DNA from: a plasmid
Direction: 5' to 3' (one strand)
DNA length: 64,000 nt
Sequence record: NZ_AP019754.1
In this document: positions 50,300-59,663 of the stretch, in pieces
Position numbering within the stretch: the stretch's first letter is position 1
How the letters are laid out: every line of letters starts with the position of its first letter
Notes under the pieces: generated by a model
Seen by the model: only the letters and a program-made list of their open reading frames with translations
Told to the model about the DNA's origin: nothing
The model's database searches: none
Translations under genes and position numbers: made by a program

Positions 50300-51085
50300 T
50301 CAGATAGCCGGATAGTCGCCAGTGCCTTCAGGCCAGGGCGTGAGCAGGTCAAAGCCCGTCTCGGTGACGGCGACGGTATGCTCCCACTGGGCAGACAGCG
50401 AGCGATCTTTTGTAACCACCGTCCAGCCATCAGAAAGCACACTGGTCCCTGCTTTTCCAGCATTGATCATGGGTTCGATGGTAAAAATCATCCCTGCCTG
50501 TAAAGGCATTCCTTCGCCCGGCGTGCCGTAGTGAAGAATTTGAGGTTCGGTATGATAAATCTCGCCGACGCCATGACCGCAATATTCCCTGACCACGGAA
50601 AAACCCGCGCTCTCAGCAAGGCGCTGAATAGCGGCGCCAATATCGCCCAGTGTCGCGCCCGGGCGAACCGTTTTAATGCCTGCAACCATGGACTGATAGG
50701 TAATATCCACCAGCCGTTTTGCACGCACGGATGGCGTCCCCACAAAATACATTCGGCTGGTATCGCCATACCAGCCATCTTTAATAATGGCGACATCGAT
50801 ATTCACAATATCACCTTCTTTTAATGTTTTGGCCGCCGGGATCCCGTGGCAAACAACATGGTTAACGGAAGTACAGGTGGTACGGGTGTAACCGTGATAA
50901 CCGATATTGGCGGGCGTAACGTTGAGTTCATTGACAATAAAATCATGACAGATATCGTCCAGTTGCTCTGTCGTGATCCCCGGGCGTACATGAGGGGTGA
51001 TCATCGCCAGCACCTGGGCGGCAGCGTGCCCGGCAGCACGGGCTTTTTCAATTTCTTCTGCAGAATGGATCTTAACGTTCCCCAT
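50300..51085 (-). CDS. map: Type I methionine aminopeptidase
   Basis: 261 aa; conserved Map motifs (GYHGY, metal-binding D/D/H/E/E framework). Start overlaps the stop of the upstream small ORF (ATGA). Confidence 0.85.
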   Translation of the reverse strand: MGNVKIHSAEEIEKARAAGHAAAQVLAMITPHVRPGITTEQLDDICHDFIVNELNVTPANIGYHGYTRTTCTSVNHVVCHGIPAAKTLKEGDIVNIDVAIIKDGWYGDTSRMYFVGTPSVRAKRLVDITYQSMVAGIKTVRPGATLGDIGAAIQRLAESAGFSVVREYCGHGVGEIYHTEPQILHYGTPGEGMPLQAGMIFTIEPMINAGKAGTSVLSDGWTVVTKDRSLSAQWEHTVAVTETGFDLLTPWPEGTGDYPAI

Positions 51086-51327
51086 TACACTTCTCCTTGT
51101 GGGGTTAAATCGGCATGATGTAGTACCTGGCGAATATCGGCACCGCCGTTCATTTCGATGCGGATTAATGTTTGAGCAAGCTCGTGTTGTGTCAGCTGGG
51201 GATACAGCTCGGCCAGCATGCCCAGTTTTAACCAGTGCTCAGCCTGCGCATTTATTGAGCGGCTCATCGCCTGGCTGGCGATGCGTAAGTTTTCATGCAT
51301 CAGATCGGATATTTTAACAATGCCCAT
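51085..51327 (-). CDS. ParD-like (RHH-type) antitoxin-family small protein
   Basis: 80 aa; MGIVKISD..NLRIASQAMSRSINAQAEHWLKLG resembles the ParD-like antitoxin family (PF11903) as I recall it. Translationally coupled to map. Confidence 0.45.
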   Translation of the reverse strand: MGIVKISDLMHENLRIASQAMSRSINAQAEHWLKLGMLAELYPQLTQHELAQTLIRIEMNGGADIRQVLHHADLTPQGEV

Positions 51328-51963
51328 GCGAAGCCTATATAGAATGTATACGTTTTATATATAGGTTACGCTTTTTGCGGTGACAGTGAAAGCTGAATTA
51401 ACCGGTCAAAAAATGCTTAAAGCGCCATTCTTCCGGTAGCGCGATGAATTTCTAACTTAATGACACAGTCTGAGTGCGTATTTAATCTGTTCTGATCTCG
51501 CGCCTTTTATTGGCGTGCCGGGCAGAGTTAGTCTTTGATGTGACCGATCAGCAAAGTCACACACCATTCTCTGACCGGGTTAAACTTCATAAACCTATGC
51601 GGTATTACCCAGGTTAACTTTTCATGTTACTTCGCAGATCATGAACCATAATCTACTGTTGAAAATCTGCGATATTGACGCATCACGCCTGTTCCGTCCT
51701 GGCCATCGCGCTGAGGTCTGCAATTCATGGGTTGGGTACAATCAGACAGAGATTTGTCTTTGTCCGATTGTTGCCCCTGCTTCAGTTACAGGCCGGTTGC
51801 GGATGTCCGTTGACAAGACGCGGTGTGGATTGCGCAGAGTGGCGGTAATGTGCGGGAGGTTTAACGCAGGCGGTGGTATTTTATCCGGGGCTTTACGCCT
51901 TAAAACGGCATCATAAAAGGATTACGCGTGTTCACGTTGCACTTAACCACCGGGATTAACCTT

Positions 51964-53029: not shown

Positions 53030-54130
53030 GTGGCTGAAATCAGCATAAATACAAGGTCGCCGCATGTCGGCCATCACGTCATGGTATGGCTGGAGCAGAT
53101 CAGAAAGGCTTCGCTGTCTGAAGTCGATAATTTTGGTGACGAGGGCACGGTCGAGCAGGTCATTAAGGTCTGGGTAAAGCTGTCATTACTCGTTACGCGT
53201 CGCCGTCCTGAAATCGCGATTTCCTCCCTTCTCCGGCATGTCTTACCGAATATTGGCTCACTCCCGCTGAAGAATCTGACGCGATTACGACTAAACAGAC
53301 TATATAACATACTGATTTCAGAGGGTAAAAAGGAAGAGGCGCGGCGCGTATTCGCGTTGACAAAACAGTTTTTATCCTGGGCAGAAATGCAGGGTTATCT
53401 TGAGCATTCCCCTGTTGCTTCAATGAAAAAACGTGACATTGCAGGCCGTGCGGCCTCACCGCGCAGTCGACAGTTGTCGGATGCTGAGATTTGGGTGTTC
53501 TGGCATGGGCTGGACAACTGGGCACTCTCTGAACAGGCCCGTTGGGCACTGCGGCTTTGCCTGGTGAGCGCGCGACGACCAGACGAGATCGTTCAGGCTC
53601 GTAAAGCAGAATTTAATTTACAGTCAGGGCTGTGGAAACAAGGTACGCGGAACAAATCGCAGCGTGAACATACGTTGCCGGTCTCTTCCCTGATGCGCTT
53701 GTGTATCGAGTCATTGTTAAAGGCCAGCGATCCTGCTTCGCCCTGGCTGGTACCGGCACCGCGCGATGTGATGCAACCGCTGTCAAAAGGTGCGCTTAAT
53801 CAGGCTCTGCGACGCATGTTACGCGCACCGCGCGGCCTGGGACTGGAACATTTTACACCACGAGACCTGCGGCGAACGGCACGCTCAAAGTTATCTGCAC
53901 TGGACACGCCCAACGACGTGGCAAGAAAAATCATGAATCATGCATTAGAAGGGATAGATCGTGTTTACGATACGCACGACTATGTCGTGCAGATGCGCGC
54001 TGCACTGGAAAAGTATTCGGAATCATTACAGGTAATTATCAACAGTGATAGTTACCATTTTCTACATCATCGTTATGAAGGCGAAAGGCTGAAATTAGAC
54101 AGTTCCTCTGTCATGGTCATGAGCCTTTAA
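53030..54130 (+). CDS. Tyrosine recombinase/integrase (P4-like), possibly lacking the N-terminal arm-binding domain
   Basis: C-terminal catalytic region with R...HxxR...Y arrangement (FTPRDLRRTARS, NHALEG..RVYDTHDY). At 366 aa and without a recognisable DUF4102 N-terminus it may be N-terminally degenerate. No tRNA found nearby. Confidence 0.7.
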   Translation: MAEISINTRSPHVGHHVMVWLEQIRKASLSEVDNFGDEGTVEQVIKVWVKLSLLVTRRRPEIAISSLLRHVLPNIGSLPLKNLTRLRLNRLYNILISEGKKEEARRVFALTKQFLSWAEMQGYLEHSPVASMKKRDIAGRAASPRSRQLSDAEIWVFWHGLDNWALSEQARWALRLCLVSARRPDEIVQARKAEFNLQSGLWKQGTRNKSQREHTLPVSSLMRLCIESLLKASDPASPWLVPAPRDVMQPLSKGALNQALRRMLRAPRGLGLEHFTPRDLRRTARSKLSALDTPNDVARKIMNHALEGIDRVYDTHDYVVQMRAALEKYSESLQVIINSDSYHFLHHRYEGERLKLDSSSVMVMSL

Positions 54131-54154
54131 CGGGACAGTCAGGCTGTTTCCAAT

Positions 54155-54184
54155 AAAAAAGCGGTGTCCTCATCAACACCGCTT
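54155..54184. terminator. Bidirectional hairpin terminator between the integrase and hns-like genes
   Basis: AAAAAAGCGGTGT-loop-ACACCGCTT with a T-run on the minus-strand side. Confidence 0.65.
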
Positions 54185-54191
54185 AATTATG

Positions 54192-54587
54192 TCAGATCAG
54201 GAAGTCATCGAGAGAACCGCCTGCATCCAGGGCCTTTTTAATAGGCGATGGTGTACGGCCCTGACCTGTCCATGATTTCTTTTCACCGTTTTCGTCGGTA
54301 TATTGATATTTAGCCGGGCGCGGAGCACGTTTAGCTTTTGTTTTAGTTTCTGTAGGTAAATCCATCAGCTCAGAAATATCGATGCCGTCATTCATCAGCA
54401 TTTCTTTATATTTAGCCAGCTTGTCTGCTTTTTCACGCAGCAGGGCTTGCTCAGCTTCTTCTTCTTCACGGCGTTCAGCGACAACGACAGAAAGCTTTTC
54501 GAGCATCTCATTTAACACATCAAGCTCAATTTCCCGGGCTTGTGCACGTAAAATACGAAGGTTATTTAATGCTTTGAGCGCATCCAT
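54192..54587 (-). CDS. hns: H-NS family nucleoid-associated protein (xenogeneic silencer paralog)
   Basis: 131 aa, colinear with my recollection of E. coli H-NS ([18 protein letters not shown]..., C-terminal TGQGRTP...[12 protein letters not shown]). Followed by about 1.1 kb of AT-rich DNA. Confidence 0.85.
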
Positions 54588-55607
54588 TGATTAATCCTTA
54601 AATTACAGCGAATATTTTAAACAGAGCCATTCTACGAAAAATATTCCCAGAAGGAAATATCTCTTCAGTCCGAAATGTACAAATTTGTTACTGTAAAGAT
54701 TATTACTGACTTTCAGAACCTGAGAAACGGCATAAAGTTTAGGAATACATTGATGTTTTAAACATATTTAAACCGCCTCATGCCAATGAAAGGCGAGCAG
54801 GTTCTACACAACATGAATTATAGAATCTCTTTTTTAAGTTAAAAAATCAATGAAAATCAAAACCTAATACCTGGCTATCTTGATTTGTCGTCACGTTGTA
54901 AACCTGGAATGATGTGATTTGTCTCGTCAGAGAGAAATGATAACGTATAGTTAATAATAGCCACCCTTAAATAAAAGCTGGTCTGAGCGGACGAAATGCC
55001 TTACTAAAAAAACCGCTATTGAGGATAACGTTTTGTTATATGTAAATCCTGATTTTGATGCCAGACATCCCTCGAACCTTCCATAACCCGACCGTTGCAG
55101 CTGTTGGCTGCTTTGCAAAGATGAGAAACGGCTTTACCCGATCTGAGAAAAATAGCATTCCGGATTCCCAATTACACAAACCCGATAAAGCAACCTGTAA
55201 CCTGTGCCAGGCTTCATGCCAGGCTGAACGTTTTCTCTGTCAACCCAACGGCCATAAGTCTGTATTATCTGAACATAAGCGAAGCGTCAATAAGGGCAAT
55301 AACGTTCACATCACCGTTGTCAATAACAGCCTTTACCCATTTTTTCCATATTGTTTAAACCTGCAGTTCACCTGTCTCAGATAATGACCGCATTATATAT
55401 AAGGAAAAAAGACATAAGCGAGTGTGAGAAATAATTCTGTTCACACAGGGGTAAAACGGATGGCTCAAAAATATCCAGGCCAGCTAATTTCAGCGTTACG
55501 TCACGCGCTCGGGTTCAGAAGTACTGTGCCCGACTTGCGCTAAAACATCTGCATTATCAACAGAATACACACATCGGCTTTTCTGACGCTTTTAAAGATA
55601 AATGTTA

Positions 55608-55630
55608 ACAATAACTTGCAATGATAATCT
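55608..55630. promoter_or_regulatory. Fur-box-like sequence upstream of the second TonB-dependent receptor
   Basis: GCAATGATAATCTAAATGAGTAT partially matches the Fur consensus. Confidence 0.4.
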
Positions 55631-55763
55631 AAATGAGTATATTTCTCATTTGTTTTTACATGTTGTTGTTTTTGTCCTTATTCCTGATGGCCAGCCCGCA
55701 CGGTAGTTAACTGGGACTGATGCAGGGCAGTGGCAGCTAAAAAAAAGAAAACGAGGCGTTAGA

Positions 55764-57977: not shown

Positions 57978-57999
57978 AGACGCCGGACTTTCACCAGTG

Positions 58000-58036
58000 A
58001 GCGCCTCACCCGGGGCGCTTGCTCCCCTGCTTTTTC
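58000..58036 (+). terminator. Rho-independent terminator after the receptor gene
   Basis: GCGCC-tcacccg-GGGCGC hairpin followed by a TGCTTTTTCC T-run. Confidence 0.65.
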
Positions 58037-58190
58037 CCCCTCGACCCGGCGCAAATCGCTGATCCATCACGTTTTGACGTAATTGCCAGGCCAGAAAGTC
58101 GGGGATTTGCGCTACACTGACCAGCGTTAATCCTCCATTCTGCCGCTATGATAGCGCTGTCTGAGGCAAACTAATTCACCTGGAAGAAGT

Positions 58191-58751
58191 ATGAAAATCA
58201 GATTCCTTTCGGCTAATGAGCAAAAACTGGCGGAGGTGCGTGAAATCCTGGAGCCAGTGGGCGTCGAAGTCTTGCCGATCGCTCGTCGTATTGAAGAAAT
58301 TCAAACAGAGAATGAGCTGGATTTGGTGCGGGACAAACTCACAAAAGCCTTCTCAATTATTGGGCGTCCTCTCTTCGTTGAGCATACCGGACTTTATCTC
58401 GATGGGCTGAATGGCCTGCCTGCGGGGCTGACGCGCATATTCTGGAACCGGCTGGATGCCGATCGTTTTGCCTCCCTCGTTAATGGCCTCGATAGCCAGG
58501 GCGTCACGGCCAAAACCGTACTGGGCTATTGTGACGGGCGCAAAATGTATCAGTTTTACGGCGAATTACGTGGCACTATTGCCTCAAAACCGGCGGGCCC
58601 GCGTGGTTTTCAGTGGGACTGCGTGTTTATTCCTGAAGGCTACGATCAAACCTTCGCTGAGATGGGCGACAAGAAAAATGAAATCTCAAACCGTCGCATT
58701 GCACTGGACCGCTTCGCGTCCTTCTTAAAAACAGCACGAGGCGTGGCATGA
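58191..58751 (+). CDS. Divergent Ham1/ITPase-family (non-canonical purine NTP pyrophosphatase-like) protein
   Basis: 186 aa. N-terminal FLSANEQKLAEV matches the Ham1 (A-[ST]-N-x-x-K) motif. HTGLYLDGLNGLPAG aligns with RdgB DDSGL.VDAL.GAPG. C-terminal FQWDCVFIP...KNEISNRRIAL aligns with FGYDPIF...KS.ISHR. Stop overlaps the next start (ATGA). Confidence 0.6.
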   Translation: MKIRFLSANEQKLAEVREILEPVGVEVLPIARRIEEIQTENELDLVRDKLTKAFSIIGRPLFVEHTGLYLDGLNGLPAGLTRIFWNRLDADRFASLVNGLDSQGVTAKTVLGYCDGRKMYQFYGELRGTIASKPAGPRGFQWDCVFIPEGYDQTFAEMGDKKNEISNRRIALDRFASFLKTARGVA

Positions 58752-59542
58752 AACCTGAACTCAAGCGGGCTTATGACTCCGGTAAGCTGATACTCTTTGC
58801 CGGTGCAGGCCTGTCCCGCAATCTTGGCCTGCCAGAATGGCATGAGCTCATTGCCCATCTGGCCAACGAGCTGGGGTACGATCCCAAAATTTTTAATACC
58901 TATGGTACGCACCTTTCCCTGGCCGAATACTATAAGCAAAAAAAAGGATCGCTAGGGCCGTTGAGAAGCTGGATGGATCGCGAATGGCATCGGCCGGATA
59001 TTGATGTTCGTAGCTCTGAAATTCACACCATGATCACGCAGGGCAACTTTTCGCGTATCTATACCACCAATTATGACCGCTGGCTGGAAGCGGCACATGA
59101 GGCGCACGGTGTGCCTTACTCAAAAGTCGCGAATGCGGCCGATCTGGTGTCATTAACTGAAGACAAGCGCCACATCATTAAACTGCACGGCGACTTTGAT
59201 GATGATACCTCCATCGTTTTAGATGAAAGCAGTTACTTTGAGCGCCTCTATTTTGATTCGCCGCTGGATATCAAACTGACCCATGATGTCATGGGGAATT
59301 CGGTGTTGTTCGTGGGCTACAGCATCAGTGACTTTAATATTCGTCTGCTGTTTTATCGCCTGACCAAAATGTGGGGGCGCACGGGCCTGGCCACTGCGCG
59401 CCCCAAGTCGTACCTTTTCACTAACCGCAATAACCCGGTGGCAAAAGAAGTGCTGGGTCAGTGGGGCATTGAAATGATCGTCTCTGAAGAAGACGATCCT
59501 CGAAAAGCCCTGGCCGATTTTATGCAAGCGCTTCTGGCGTGA
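58748..59542 (+). CDS. SIR2-like (ThsA-type SIR2_2) NAD+-hydrolase-family domain protein, stand-alone, 264 aa
   Basis: Motifs colinear with my recollection of the Thoeris ThsA SIR2 domain: LILFAGAGLSRNLGLPEW (AIFAGAGLS...W), IYTTNYDRWLEAA (YWTTNYDRLIEKA), KLHGD (KMHGD), LFVGYSISDFNI (LFVGFSFTDPNL). No SLOG or other C-terminal domain. Confidence 0.7.
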   Translation: MKPELKRAYDSGKLILFAGAGLSRNLGLPEWHELIAHLANELGYDPKIFNTYGTHLSLAEYYKQKKGSLGPLRSWMDREWHRPDIDVRSSEIHTMITQGNFSRIYTTNYDRWLEAAHEAHGVPYSKVANAADLVSLTEDKRHIIKLHGDFDDDTSIVLDESSYFERLYFDSPLDIKLTHDVMGNSVLFVGYSISDFNIRLLFYRLTKMWGRTGLATARPKSYLFTNRNNPVAKEVLGQWGIEMIVSEEDDPRKALADFMQALLA

Positions 59543-59643: not shown

Positions 59644-59663
59644 TGCTGTATAAATACACAGTA
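59644..59663. promoter_or_regulatory. LexA (SOS) box upstream of yebG
   Basis: TGCTGTATAAATACACAGTA = CTGT-N8-ACAG, very close to the E. coli yebG LexA operator. 16 bp upstream of the yebG start. Confidence 0.75.

Follow-up and report, generated by a model that had tools for sequence, protein, structure and literature searches.

Orthologues of the KomB-KomC effector pair of the Kongming anti-phage system, without a neighbouring komA, on the megaplasmid of Pantoea ananatis

The first 64 kb of a Pantoea ananatis LPP-1-type megaplasmid, counted from repB (sequence record NZ_AP019754.1; 64,000 nucleotides, below called the window), carry two overlapping genes whose products are, judged from their sequences, orthologues of the two proteins, KomB and KomC, that make up the effector of the Kongming anti-phage system. 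The identity of the two proteins and the conservation of their key residues are plain and, by analogy with the characterised homologues as to ligand, degradation of nicotinamide adenine dinucleotide (NAD+) and phenotype, the locus most probably encodes a sensor of the deoxyinosine triphosphate (dITP) type together with an NAD+-degrading enzyme (NADase), independent of KomA and kept under selection. The genes and their junction are the following.

58191..58751, + strand: komB, a HAM1/ITPase-fold (inosine triphosphatase) protein of 186 amino acids (aa) with an ATG start, supported by Pfam PF01725 and by its match to solved KomB.
58748..59542, + strand: komC, a stand-alone SIR2_2 protein of 264 aa with an ATG start, supported by Pfam PF13289 and by its match to solved KomC.
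58748..58751, + strand: ATGA, in which the komB stop overlaps the komC start and couples the two genes, seen in the sequence itself.

The distribution of the pair was followed by a scan with a KomC alignment, using one genome per species; the 80 loci kept are those that match the Pantoea query best, and the counts given below are not frequencies. Twenty-nine of these loci belong to Pantoea, Mixta and '[Erwinia] mediterraneensis' (here Pantoea/Mixta), with 78-100% identity in KomB and 91-100% in KomC. KomA or a piece of KomA is present in 21 loci, KomBC occurs without KomA in 24 loci outside Pantoea/Mixta (Stutzerimonas and others), and KomC stands without a detectable KomB in six, so that KomB adjoins KomC in 74 of the 80. 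An initial annotation, made from the letters of the window, had placed two translationally coupled open reading frames (ORFs) here, which the shared ATGA confirms. The same 4-nt overlap is found in all 29 Pantoea/Mixta loci, and also in canonical KomABC loci, and ORFs of 186 and 264 or 265 aa recur in each of the 29 species representatives; the gene pair is therefore not a product of chance reading frames. The assignment to the Ham1 and SIR2_2 families is borne out by Pfam (Ham1p_like, PF01725, E=3.9e-35 over residues 3-177 of the 186 in KomB; SIR2_2, PF13289, E=7.2e-24 in KomC), and the SIR2 motifs that had been quoted (LFAGAGLS...W, TTNYDR, HGD and LFVGYS) are all present in the KomC translation. 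The 264-aa protein indeed lacks a SLOG domain, and the annotation of the matching RefSeq plasmid lists no TIR protein within 66 kb, both as originally noted. Whether the pair recurs in other genomes had been posed as a question, and recurrence was found in the 29 Pantoea/Mixta representatives and in the further KomBC loci.

Kongming has been described as a three-gene operon encoding KomA (an adenosine deaminase, PF00962), KomB (HAM1-like, PF01725) and KomC (SIR2-like, PF13289) (Zeng et al., bioRxiv 10.1101/2024.12.20.629578 / Science 2025), and it protects Escherichia coli against many phages (Zeng et al., bioRxiv 10.1101/2024.12.20.629578). KomA turns the deoxyadenosine nucleotides dAMP/dADP into the deoxyinosine nucleotides dIMP/dIDP, and dITP is made by KomA together with a phage deoxynucleoside monophosphate (dNMP) kinase and the host nucleoside diphosphate kinase (NDK) (Zeng et al.). 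The KomB of E. coli has lost its pyrophosphatase activity, and dITP is not hydrolysed but sensed, whereupon KomBC degrades NAD+. Cryo-electron microscopy (cryo-EM) has shown that the KomBC filament is pre-assembled and remodelled by dITP (Li et al., Nat Commun 2026, PMC13454610), and structures of KomBC from E. coli NCTC13216 are deposited as PDB 8zsf-8zsi and 9xvc.

The KomB of the window matches solved KomB (8zsg) with E=1.2e-66 and 55% identity in a gap-free alignment over residues 1-179, and KomC matches solved KomC (8zsf) with E=4.4e-102 and 57% identity, whereas the structures of ThsA and DSR2 are far weaker matches to KomC (~1e-17 to 1e-14). The pairing had been regarded as undescribed, which does not hold, since it is the KomBC of the named Kongming system. 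The SIR2 motifs had further been said to match the NADase domain of Thoeris ThsA almost residue for residue; the homology is real (6lhx, E=4e-17), but the wording was too strong, as the KomC structure 8zsf is closer (4e-102). The functional proposals fared better: experiments on characterised KomB and KomC support the SIR2 protein as an NAD+-depleting effector, and the idea of the Ham1 protein as a sensor of a non-canonical purine nucleotide, e.g. dITP, is essentially right for characterised KomB. The alternative of an antitoxin-like partner is unlikely, because characterised KomC is inactive alone and needs KomB for NADase activity. PADLOC recognises the pair in part, with ThsA as the best model for KomC (E=2e-27) and no model matching KomB; the release used, PADLOC-DB v2.0.0 (2023), most likely predates Kongming and hence has no such model. 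A classification as ThsA on this basis was rejected, since the library lacks a KomB-matching model and the KomBC matches in the PDB and the literature are far stronger. In RefSeq the two genes are named 'non-canonical purine NTP pyrophosphatase' and 'SIR2 family protein', and some homologues are entered in databases as 'NAD-dependent protein deacetylase'.

At residues 63-68 KomB reads VEHTGL, which places H65 at the position of the catalytic Asp, where the active ITPases PH1917 and Mj0226 read vEDSGL. This His is found in 29/29 Pantoea, 21/21 KomA-linked and 24/24 other KomBC loci, and its substitution for the catalytic Asp, with the nucleotide-binding residues kept, is the mark of 'defensive HAM1s' (Zeng et al.). 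The nucleotide-binding residues N9, K12, E15, K49, T66, F140, Q141, W142 and R168 are all present, K49, F140, Q141, W142 and R168 being mutationally validated dITP contacts in the Kongming literature. The contact residues R4, E36, Q38, R59, D115 and K118, essential by published mutagenesis, are likewise conserved, while R8 is replaced by Ala, a position held by Gly in 17 of the 21 KomA-linked loci. Housekeeping ITPases (RdgB/HAM1/ITPA; PH1917, Mj0226) share with KomB the fold and the N-x-x-K-x-x-E motif but retain the catalytic Asp and a GFxYD motif, in place of which KomB carries the KomB-specific FQWD at 140-143; consistent with this, KomB scores below every NCBIfam ITPase equivalog cut-off (best 136.6 vs 203). 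These features point to KomB as a predicted catalytically dead sensor of a dITP-type nucleotide. Clade-specific remodelling of the ligand pocket was considered and rejected: the scan gave mostly conservative fixed changes, and for this reason no clear ligand switch is apparent in Pantoea/Mixta.

In KomC the equivalents of N107, D109, H146 (H147 here) and D194 (D195 here) are conserved, H146 being the catalytic His and D194 the NADase-clade Asp of solved KomC, and H147 and D195 are invariant across all 80 loci. The filament residues D76, R77 and the DFDDD of loop1 are kept, as are D44, E246 and D248, which form KomB-KomC contacts essential by mutagenesis, and on the KomB side loop2 is conserved among the interface elements. 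This pattern is consistent with KomC as a predicted NADase effector, and the retained interface residues predict a KomB-KomC complex or filament.

The third Kongming gene was sought at several levels. Searching the 64-kb window by tblastn with KomA gave no match (best E=0.7), and no komA remnant was found in the 213-bp spacer upstream of komB, where fhuE (siderophore receptor) stands directly upstream at the usual place of komA. Neither was KomA found within ±6 kb in the 29 Pantoea/Mixta representatives, nor a KomA-type gene on the Pantoea plasmids in PLSDB, the sole match above 40% identity lying on a Vibrio plasmid. No deaminase or recognisable defence gene is annotated in the RefSeq counterpart of the window, no conserved replacement partner was found up- or downstream of the pair in Pantoea/Mixta, where the neighbours are heterogeneous housekeeping genes, and sequenced phages hold essentially no KomA-type deaminases, the matches being add-like, of at most 31% identity and in few records. 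As the test for KomA failed, the locus is to be filed as a KomBC module and not as a complete three-gene Kongming system, and since no komA remnant is left, the loss of komA in Pantoea appears to be old. In other lineages komA is found broken: in Chitinilyticum (L048, 3400-5444) it is interrupted by an insertion with a 378-aa reverse ORF, probably an insertion sequence (IS), and what remains of it in Chitinimonas and in two loci of Burkholderiales are 3' fragments, frameshifted or truncated at the 5' end (L049, 5109-5428; L052, 5199-5441; L053, 5322-5441). Because komB and komC are full length in all of these loci, the loss of komA is recurrent.

In a neighbour-joining tree the KomC proteins of Pantoea/Mixta are monophyletic, with Mixta basal, and nested among KomA-bearing lineages, a topology that fits a single ancestral loss of komA followed by vertical descent. 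The komBC ORFs are intact in all 29 representatives, the median ratio of nonsynonymous to synonymous divergence (dN/dS, Nei-Gojobori) is 0.024 for komC and 0.059 for komB with dS at or near saturation, and KomC is 91-97% identical between species as against 63-87% for the adjacent YebG. The intact ORFs together with the strong purifying selection argue that komBC is functional and not a remnant. In one strain, P. ananatis LMG 5342 (pPANA10, L095), komC carries a +1 and then a compensating -1 frameshift at two homopolymer runs, corresponding to window positions 58890-58894 (T5) and 58938-58945 (A8); this shifts residues 49-65 into another frame that holds two stops, and komC is not listed in the annotation table. 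The frameshifts may be an artefact of sequencing or a genuine inactivation in this strain.

A second KomA-less clade of KomBC is formed by Stutzerimonas, Pseudomonas and Azotobacter, with conserved synteny (L060-L075, L079 and L087; e.g. L060 4547-5341 and L079 7331-7747). Directly upstream of komB, 15 of 17 Stutzerimonas/Pseudomonas loci carry a gene for a ~265-aa protein with a C-terminal bacterial globin domain (PF01152, E=1e-22), and in Azotobacter bryophylli a globin-domain gene lies downstream of komC; this protein may be a functional partner of KomBC. In 18 of the 24 KomA-less loci outside Pantoea, this clade included, Glu takes the place of the KomB residue Q141, on which recognition of dITP critically depends, a substitution hinting at a different ligand there.

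Compared with Kongming of E. coli NCTC13216, the Pantoea locus has the same two families in the same gene order, the H65 signature, the dITP contacts, the interfaces and the equivalents of the KomC catalytic residues. It differs in having neither komA nor a replacement in cis, in the substitutions H11Q and R8A in KomB and R177T in KomC, and in the E56/Q231 pair of KomC, which is S/A here. It also differs in context, being genus-wide and vertically inherited on a domesticated megaplasmid, whereas the canonical system has its place on a mobile island, with SIR2-HerA and an integrase next to it. Closer relatives are the KomABC operons of Enterobacteriaceae, Pseudomonas, Halomonas and Burkholderiales (L007-L012, L042-L059), with KomC 65-73% and KomB ~65% identical (vs L010), the same protein lengths (186/264 aa) and the same ATGA coupling. 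The Pantoea clade is nested within these operons, in which, unlike in Pantoea, komA lies immediately upstream of komB and overlaps it. The Enterobacteriaceae relatives with a 72%-identical KomC show the arrangement A_deaminase-Ham1-SIR2 with overlapping genes, again beside SIR2-HerA and an integrase.

The SIR2 NADase domain of Thoeris ThsA is homologous to KomC, and both systems represent NAD+ depletion gated by a nucleotide signal. However, Pantoea KomC lacks SLOG, the ThsA models align over the SIR2 part only, the sensor is a separate HAM1 protein, and no ThsB/TIR gene is annotated in the RefSeq counterpart of the window. RADAR, in which the adenosine deaminase RdrB yields inosine triphosphate (ITP) and dITP, likewise employs deaminated adenine nucleotides in phage defence, but the matching RefSeq record shows no RdrA/RdrB-like gene in its annotation, and RADAR is not known to contain a HAM1 or SIR2 component. 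The window proteins are matched at a greater distance (E=9e-24 and 3e-41) by a second solved complex, entered as 'XTP/ITP pyrophosphatase' plus 'NAD-dependent deacetylase' (PDB 9v0g and related entries); here too the catalytic position is occupied by His (vEHGAL), and FHWD is present, suggesting a KomBC-type effector of greater divergence.

Within the window komBC is flanked by fhuE, yebG, a cupin gene, a gene for a methyl-accepting chemotaxis protein (MCP) and gdhA. What is conserved around the pair is the order komB-komC-yebG on the domesticated LPP-1 megaplasmid, the synteny with yebG being absent in Mixta, and the upstream genes in other species encode a binding protein of an ATP-binding cassette (ABC) transporter or an EAL protein, and in Mixta a large glycosyltransferase/oxidase. 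The GC content of komBC (0.50-0.52) is the same as that of its flanks, and there is no tRNA nearby. No mention of the pair was found in the LPP-1 literature checked. The surroundings had been called a typical defence island, a description not supported by these neighbours, which serve transport, signalling and metabolism and lie on a megaplasmid that is passed on vertically. The island marked by an integrase and an H-NS gene, also put forward in the initial annotation, does exist as a flank, but it is confined to P. ananatis and P. allii, and the conserved neighbour is yebG. It comprises an integrase gene (53030-54130) and a divergent H-NS-family gene (54192-54587) ahead of fhuE (window 53030-55700), with an AT-rich spacer ahead of fhuE whose GC content falls to 0.37 at 54600-55199. 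As only P. ananatis and P. allii carry this block among the loci compared, it is a lineage-specific insertion unrelated to komBC. Elsewhere in the window, at ~50308-51335 on the minus strand, a gene of the ParD-like antitoxin family shares an overlap with the start of the gene for a second type I methionyl aminopeptidase (Peptidase_M24), encoded on the plasmid, a pairing that is unusual and toxin-antitoxin-like.

The region ahead of komB contains the following features.

57978..58190, + strand: komB upstream region of 213 bp, presumed komBC promoter with a site resembling a Shine-Dalgarno (SD) sequence.
58012-58025, + strand: terminator-like hairpin of fhuE with T-tract, from the terminator scan.
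58147-58152, + strand: candidate -10-like TATGAT, read by eye.
58182-58189, + strand: candidate SD-like GGAAGAAG, read by eye.

A scan of 58030-58190 found no consensus sigma-70 site, and no LexA box was found upstream of komB, the sole box in the search of the komB-yebG region lying after komC. This box is a perfect palindrome of the LexA type, CTGTATAAATACACAG, at 59646-59661 between the komC stop and the yebG start; it probably belongs to yebG and fits SOS control of the plasmid-borne yebG. A link of komB to the SOS response through the box of yebG was rejected, the box being situated after komC. The stretch between komC and yebG showed no terminator-like site, and read-through from komBC into yebG is therefore possible.

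Following the mechanism worked out for the homologues, KomB (H65) would bind, without hydrolysing it, a deoxynucleotide with a non-canonical purine, most probably dITP. Together with KomC it would pre-assemble into a filament, and ligand-bound KomB would remodel this filament such that KomC hydrolyses NAD+, with arrest or death of the cell as the outcome. In Pantoea, we infer, komBC would keep watch for dITP or a near relative independently of KomA. The nucleotide that activates it would come from an unlinked deaminase or from purine metabolism perturbed by phage, for example when a phage dNMP kinase works on host pools derived from dIMP or inosine monophosphate (IMP). The strong purifying selection argues that komBC is still useful to Pantoea/Mixta. 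As a tentative extension, the pair may be autonomous in Pantoea/Mixta, with no dedicated deaminase in the genome, and serve as an alarm for dITP-like nucleotides arising from purine metabolism perturbed by phage or damage; R177T in KomC and the relaxed H11 in KomB might then retune its sensitivity.

Several observations weigh against a KomA-independent sensor and NADase of this kind. The main one against autonomous function is that the E. coli system strictly needs KomA: an active-site mutation of KomA abolishes defence and no dITP is made without KomA, so that a pair lacking it stands without a demonstrated trigger; moreover, KomBC is not activated by ITP or canonical nucleotides. The H11 of KomB, which contacts the hypoxanthine O6 in the intermediate state, is Gln here, the position being His in 17 of the 21 KomA-linked loci and L, Q, H, Y, P or F across Pantoea. 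The position of R177 in KomC (T178 here) is Thr in 29/29 Pantoea/Mixta loci and that of E169 is Asp in the window; R177 and E169 form a salt bridge of the active state, and the R177A mutant is impaired (Kongming cryo-EM work; Li et al., PMC13454610). A genus-wide vertical inheritance in a housekeeping context is also atypical for defence genes.

The need for a trigger leads to an alternative in which Kongming is split and the signal-making deaminase (KomA-like, of the RADAR RdrB type or another nucleotide-modifying enzyme) is located elsewhere in the Pantoea genome. As the signal is a diffusible nucleotide, such a deaminase could act in trans: KomA does not physically contact KomBC and signals via free dITP, some KomBC modules are associated with other nucleotide enzymes and RADAR-like systems (Zeng et al.), and something must still be triggering the pair, to judge by the strong purifying selection. 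A split system is nevertheless a rather doubtful possibility, given that KomA-type genes are missing from the window, from the surroundings of komBC in the 29 species and from the Pantoea plasmids of PLSDB, and that a partner in trans would need to be genus-wide too. A role outside defence, with the dITP-gated NADase domesticated as a stress or metabolic checkpoint for purines deaminated by nitrosative or oxidative damage, would agree with the core-like vertical inheritance on a domesticated plasmid, the housekeeping neighbours, the native GC content and the conserved synteny with the SOS gene yebG, and the fixed T178 of KomC with the relaxed H11 of KomB could retune the activation threshold. 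It is unlikely, as no LexA box or other shared regulatory signal lies upstream of komB, the synteny with yebG is missing in Mixta and is explained by common descent, self-killing upon nucleotide damage offers no obvious benefit, and the experimental data on the family all concern phage defence.

That komBC is merely a decaying leftover of the loss of komA could be argued from the lineages in which komA is disrupted by the probable IS or reduced to 3' fragments beside a remaining komBC, and from the komC frameshifts of LMG 5342. It is very improbable in view of the full-length ORFs and ATGA overlap in 29/29 representatives, the retained catalytic, ligand and interface residues and the age of a loss that has left no trace of komA, and the selection analysis (dN/dS 0.02-0.06 despite saturated synonymous divergence) already contradicts it. 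Taking the annotation at face value, i.e. as a housekeeping non-canonical purine NTP pyrophosphatase and a sirtuin-type protein deacetylase, follows the RefSeq gene names and the deacetylase label of some homologues, but is scarcely tenable: His65 occupies the place of the catalytic Asp, all NCBIfam ITPase equivalog scores are under their cut-offs, the E. coli KomB does not hydrolyse dITP, and the 264-aa protein has its matches in SIR2_2 and in NADase effectors (KomC, ThsA and DSR2), with the NADase-clade Asp D195 in place.

A KomBC without KomA is not new in principle, because KomB and KomC have been stated always to travel together and the association with KomA to be 'less conserved' and replaceable (Zeng et al.; Li et al., PMC13454610). 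A bare, genus-wide, vertically inherited KomBC without a replacement partner is not described in the accessible part of the Kongming text. The value of the present analysis is mainly corrective, in that a supposedly undescribed defence module is the published KomBC, with mechanism and structures. Beyond this, Pantoea/Mixta keep komBC without komA in every recovered species representative and under very strong purifying selection, a similar picture is given by the second KomA-less clade (Stutzerimonas), and in several other lineages the decay of komA is plain to see. The trigger of such orphan KomBC pairs would tell whether dITP sensing serves as a general alarm without a dedicated signal synthase. 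If komBC is indeed autonomous, it would represent a self-sufficient two-gene system with a trigger logic unlike that of Kongming, in which a phage kinase is 'borrowed' to complete a pathway initiated by KomA.

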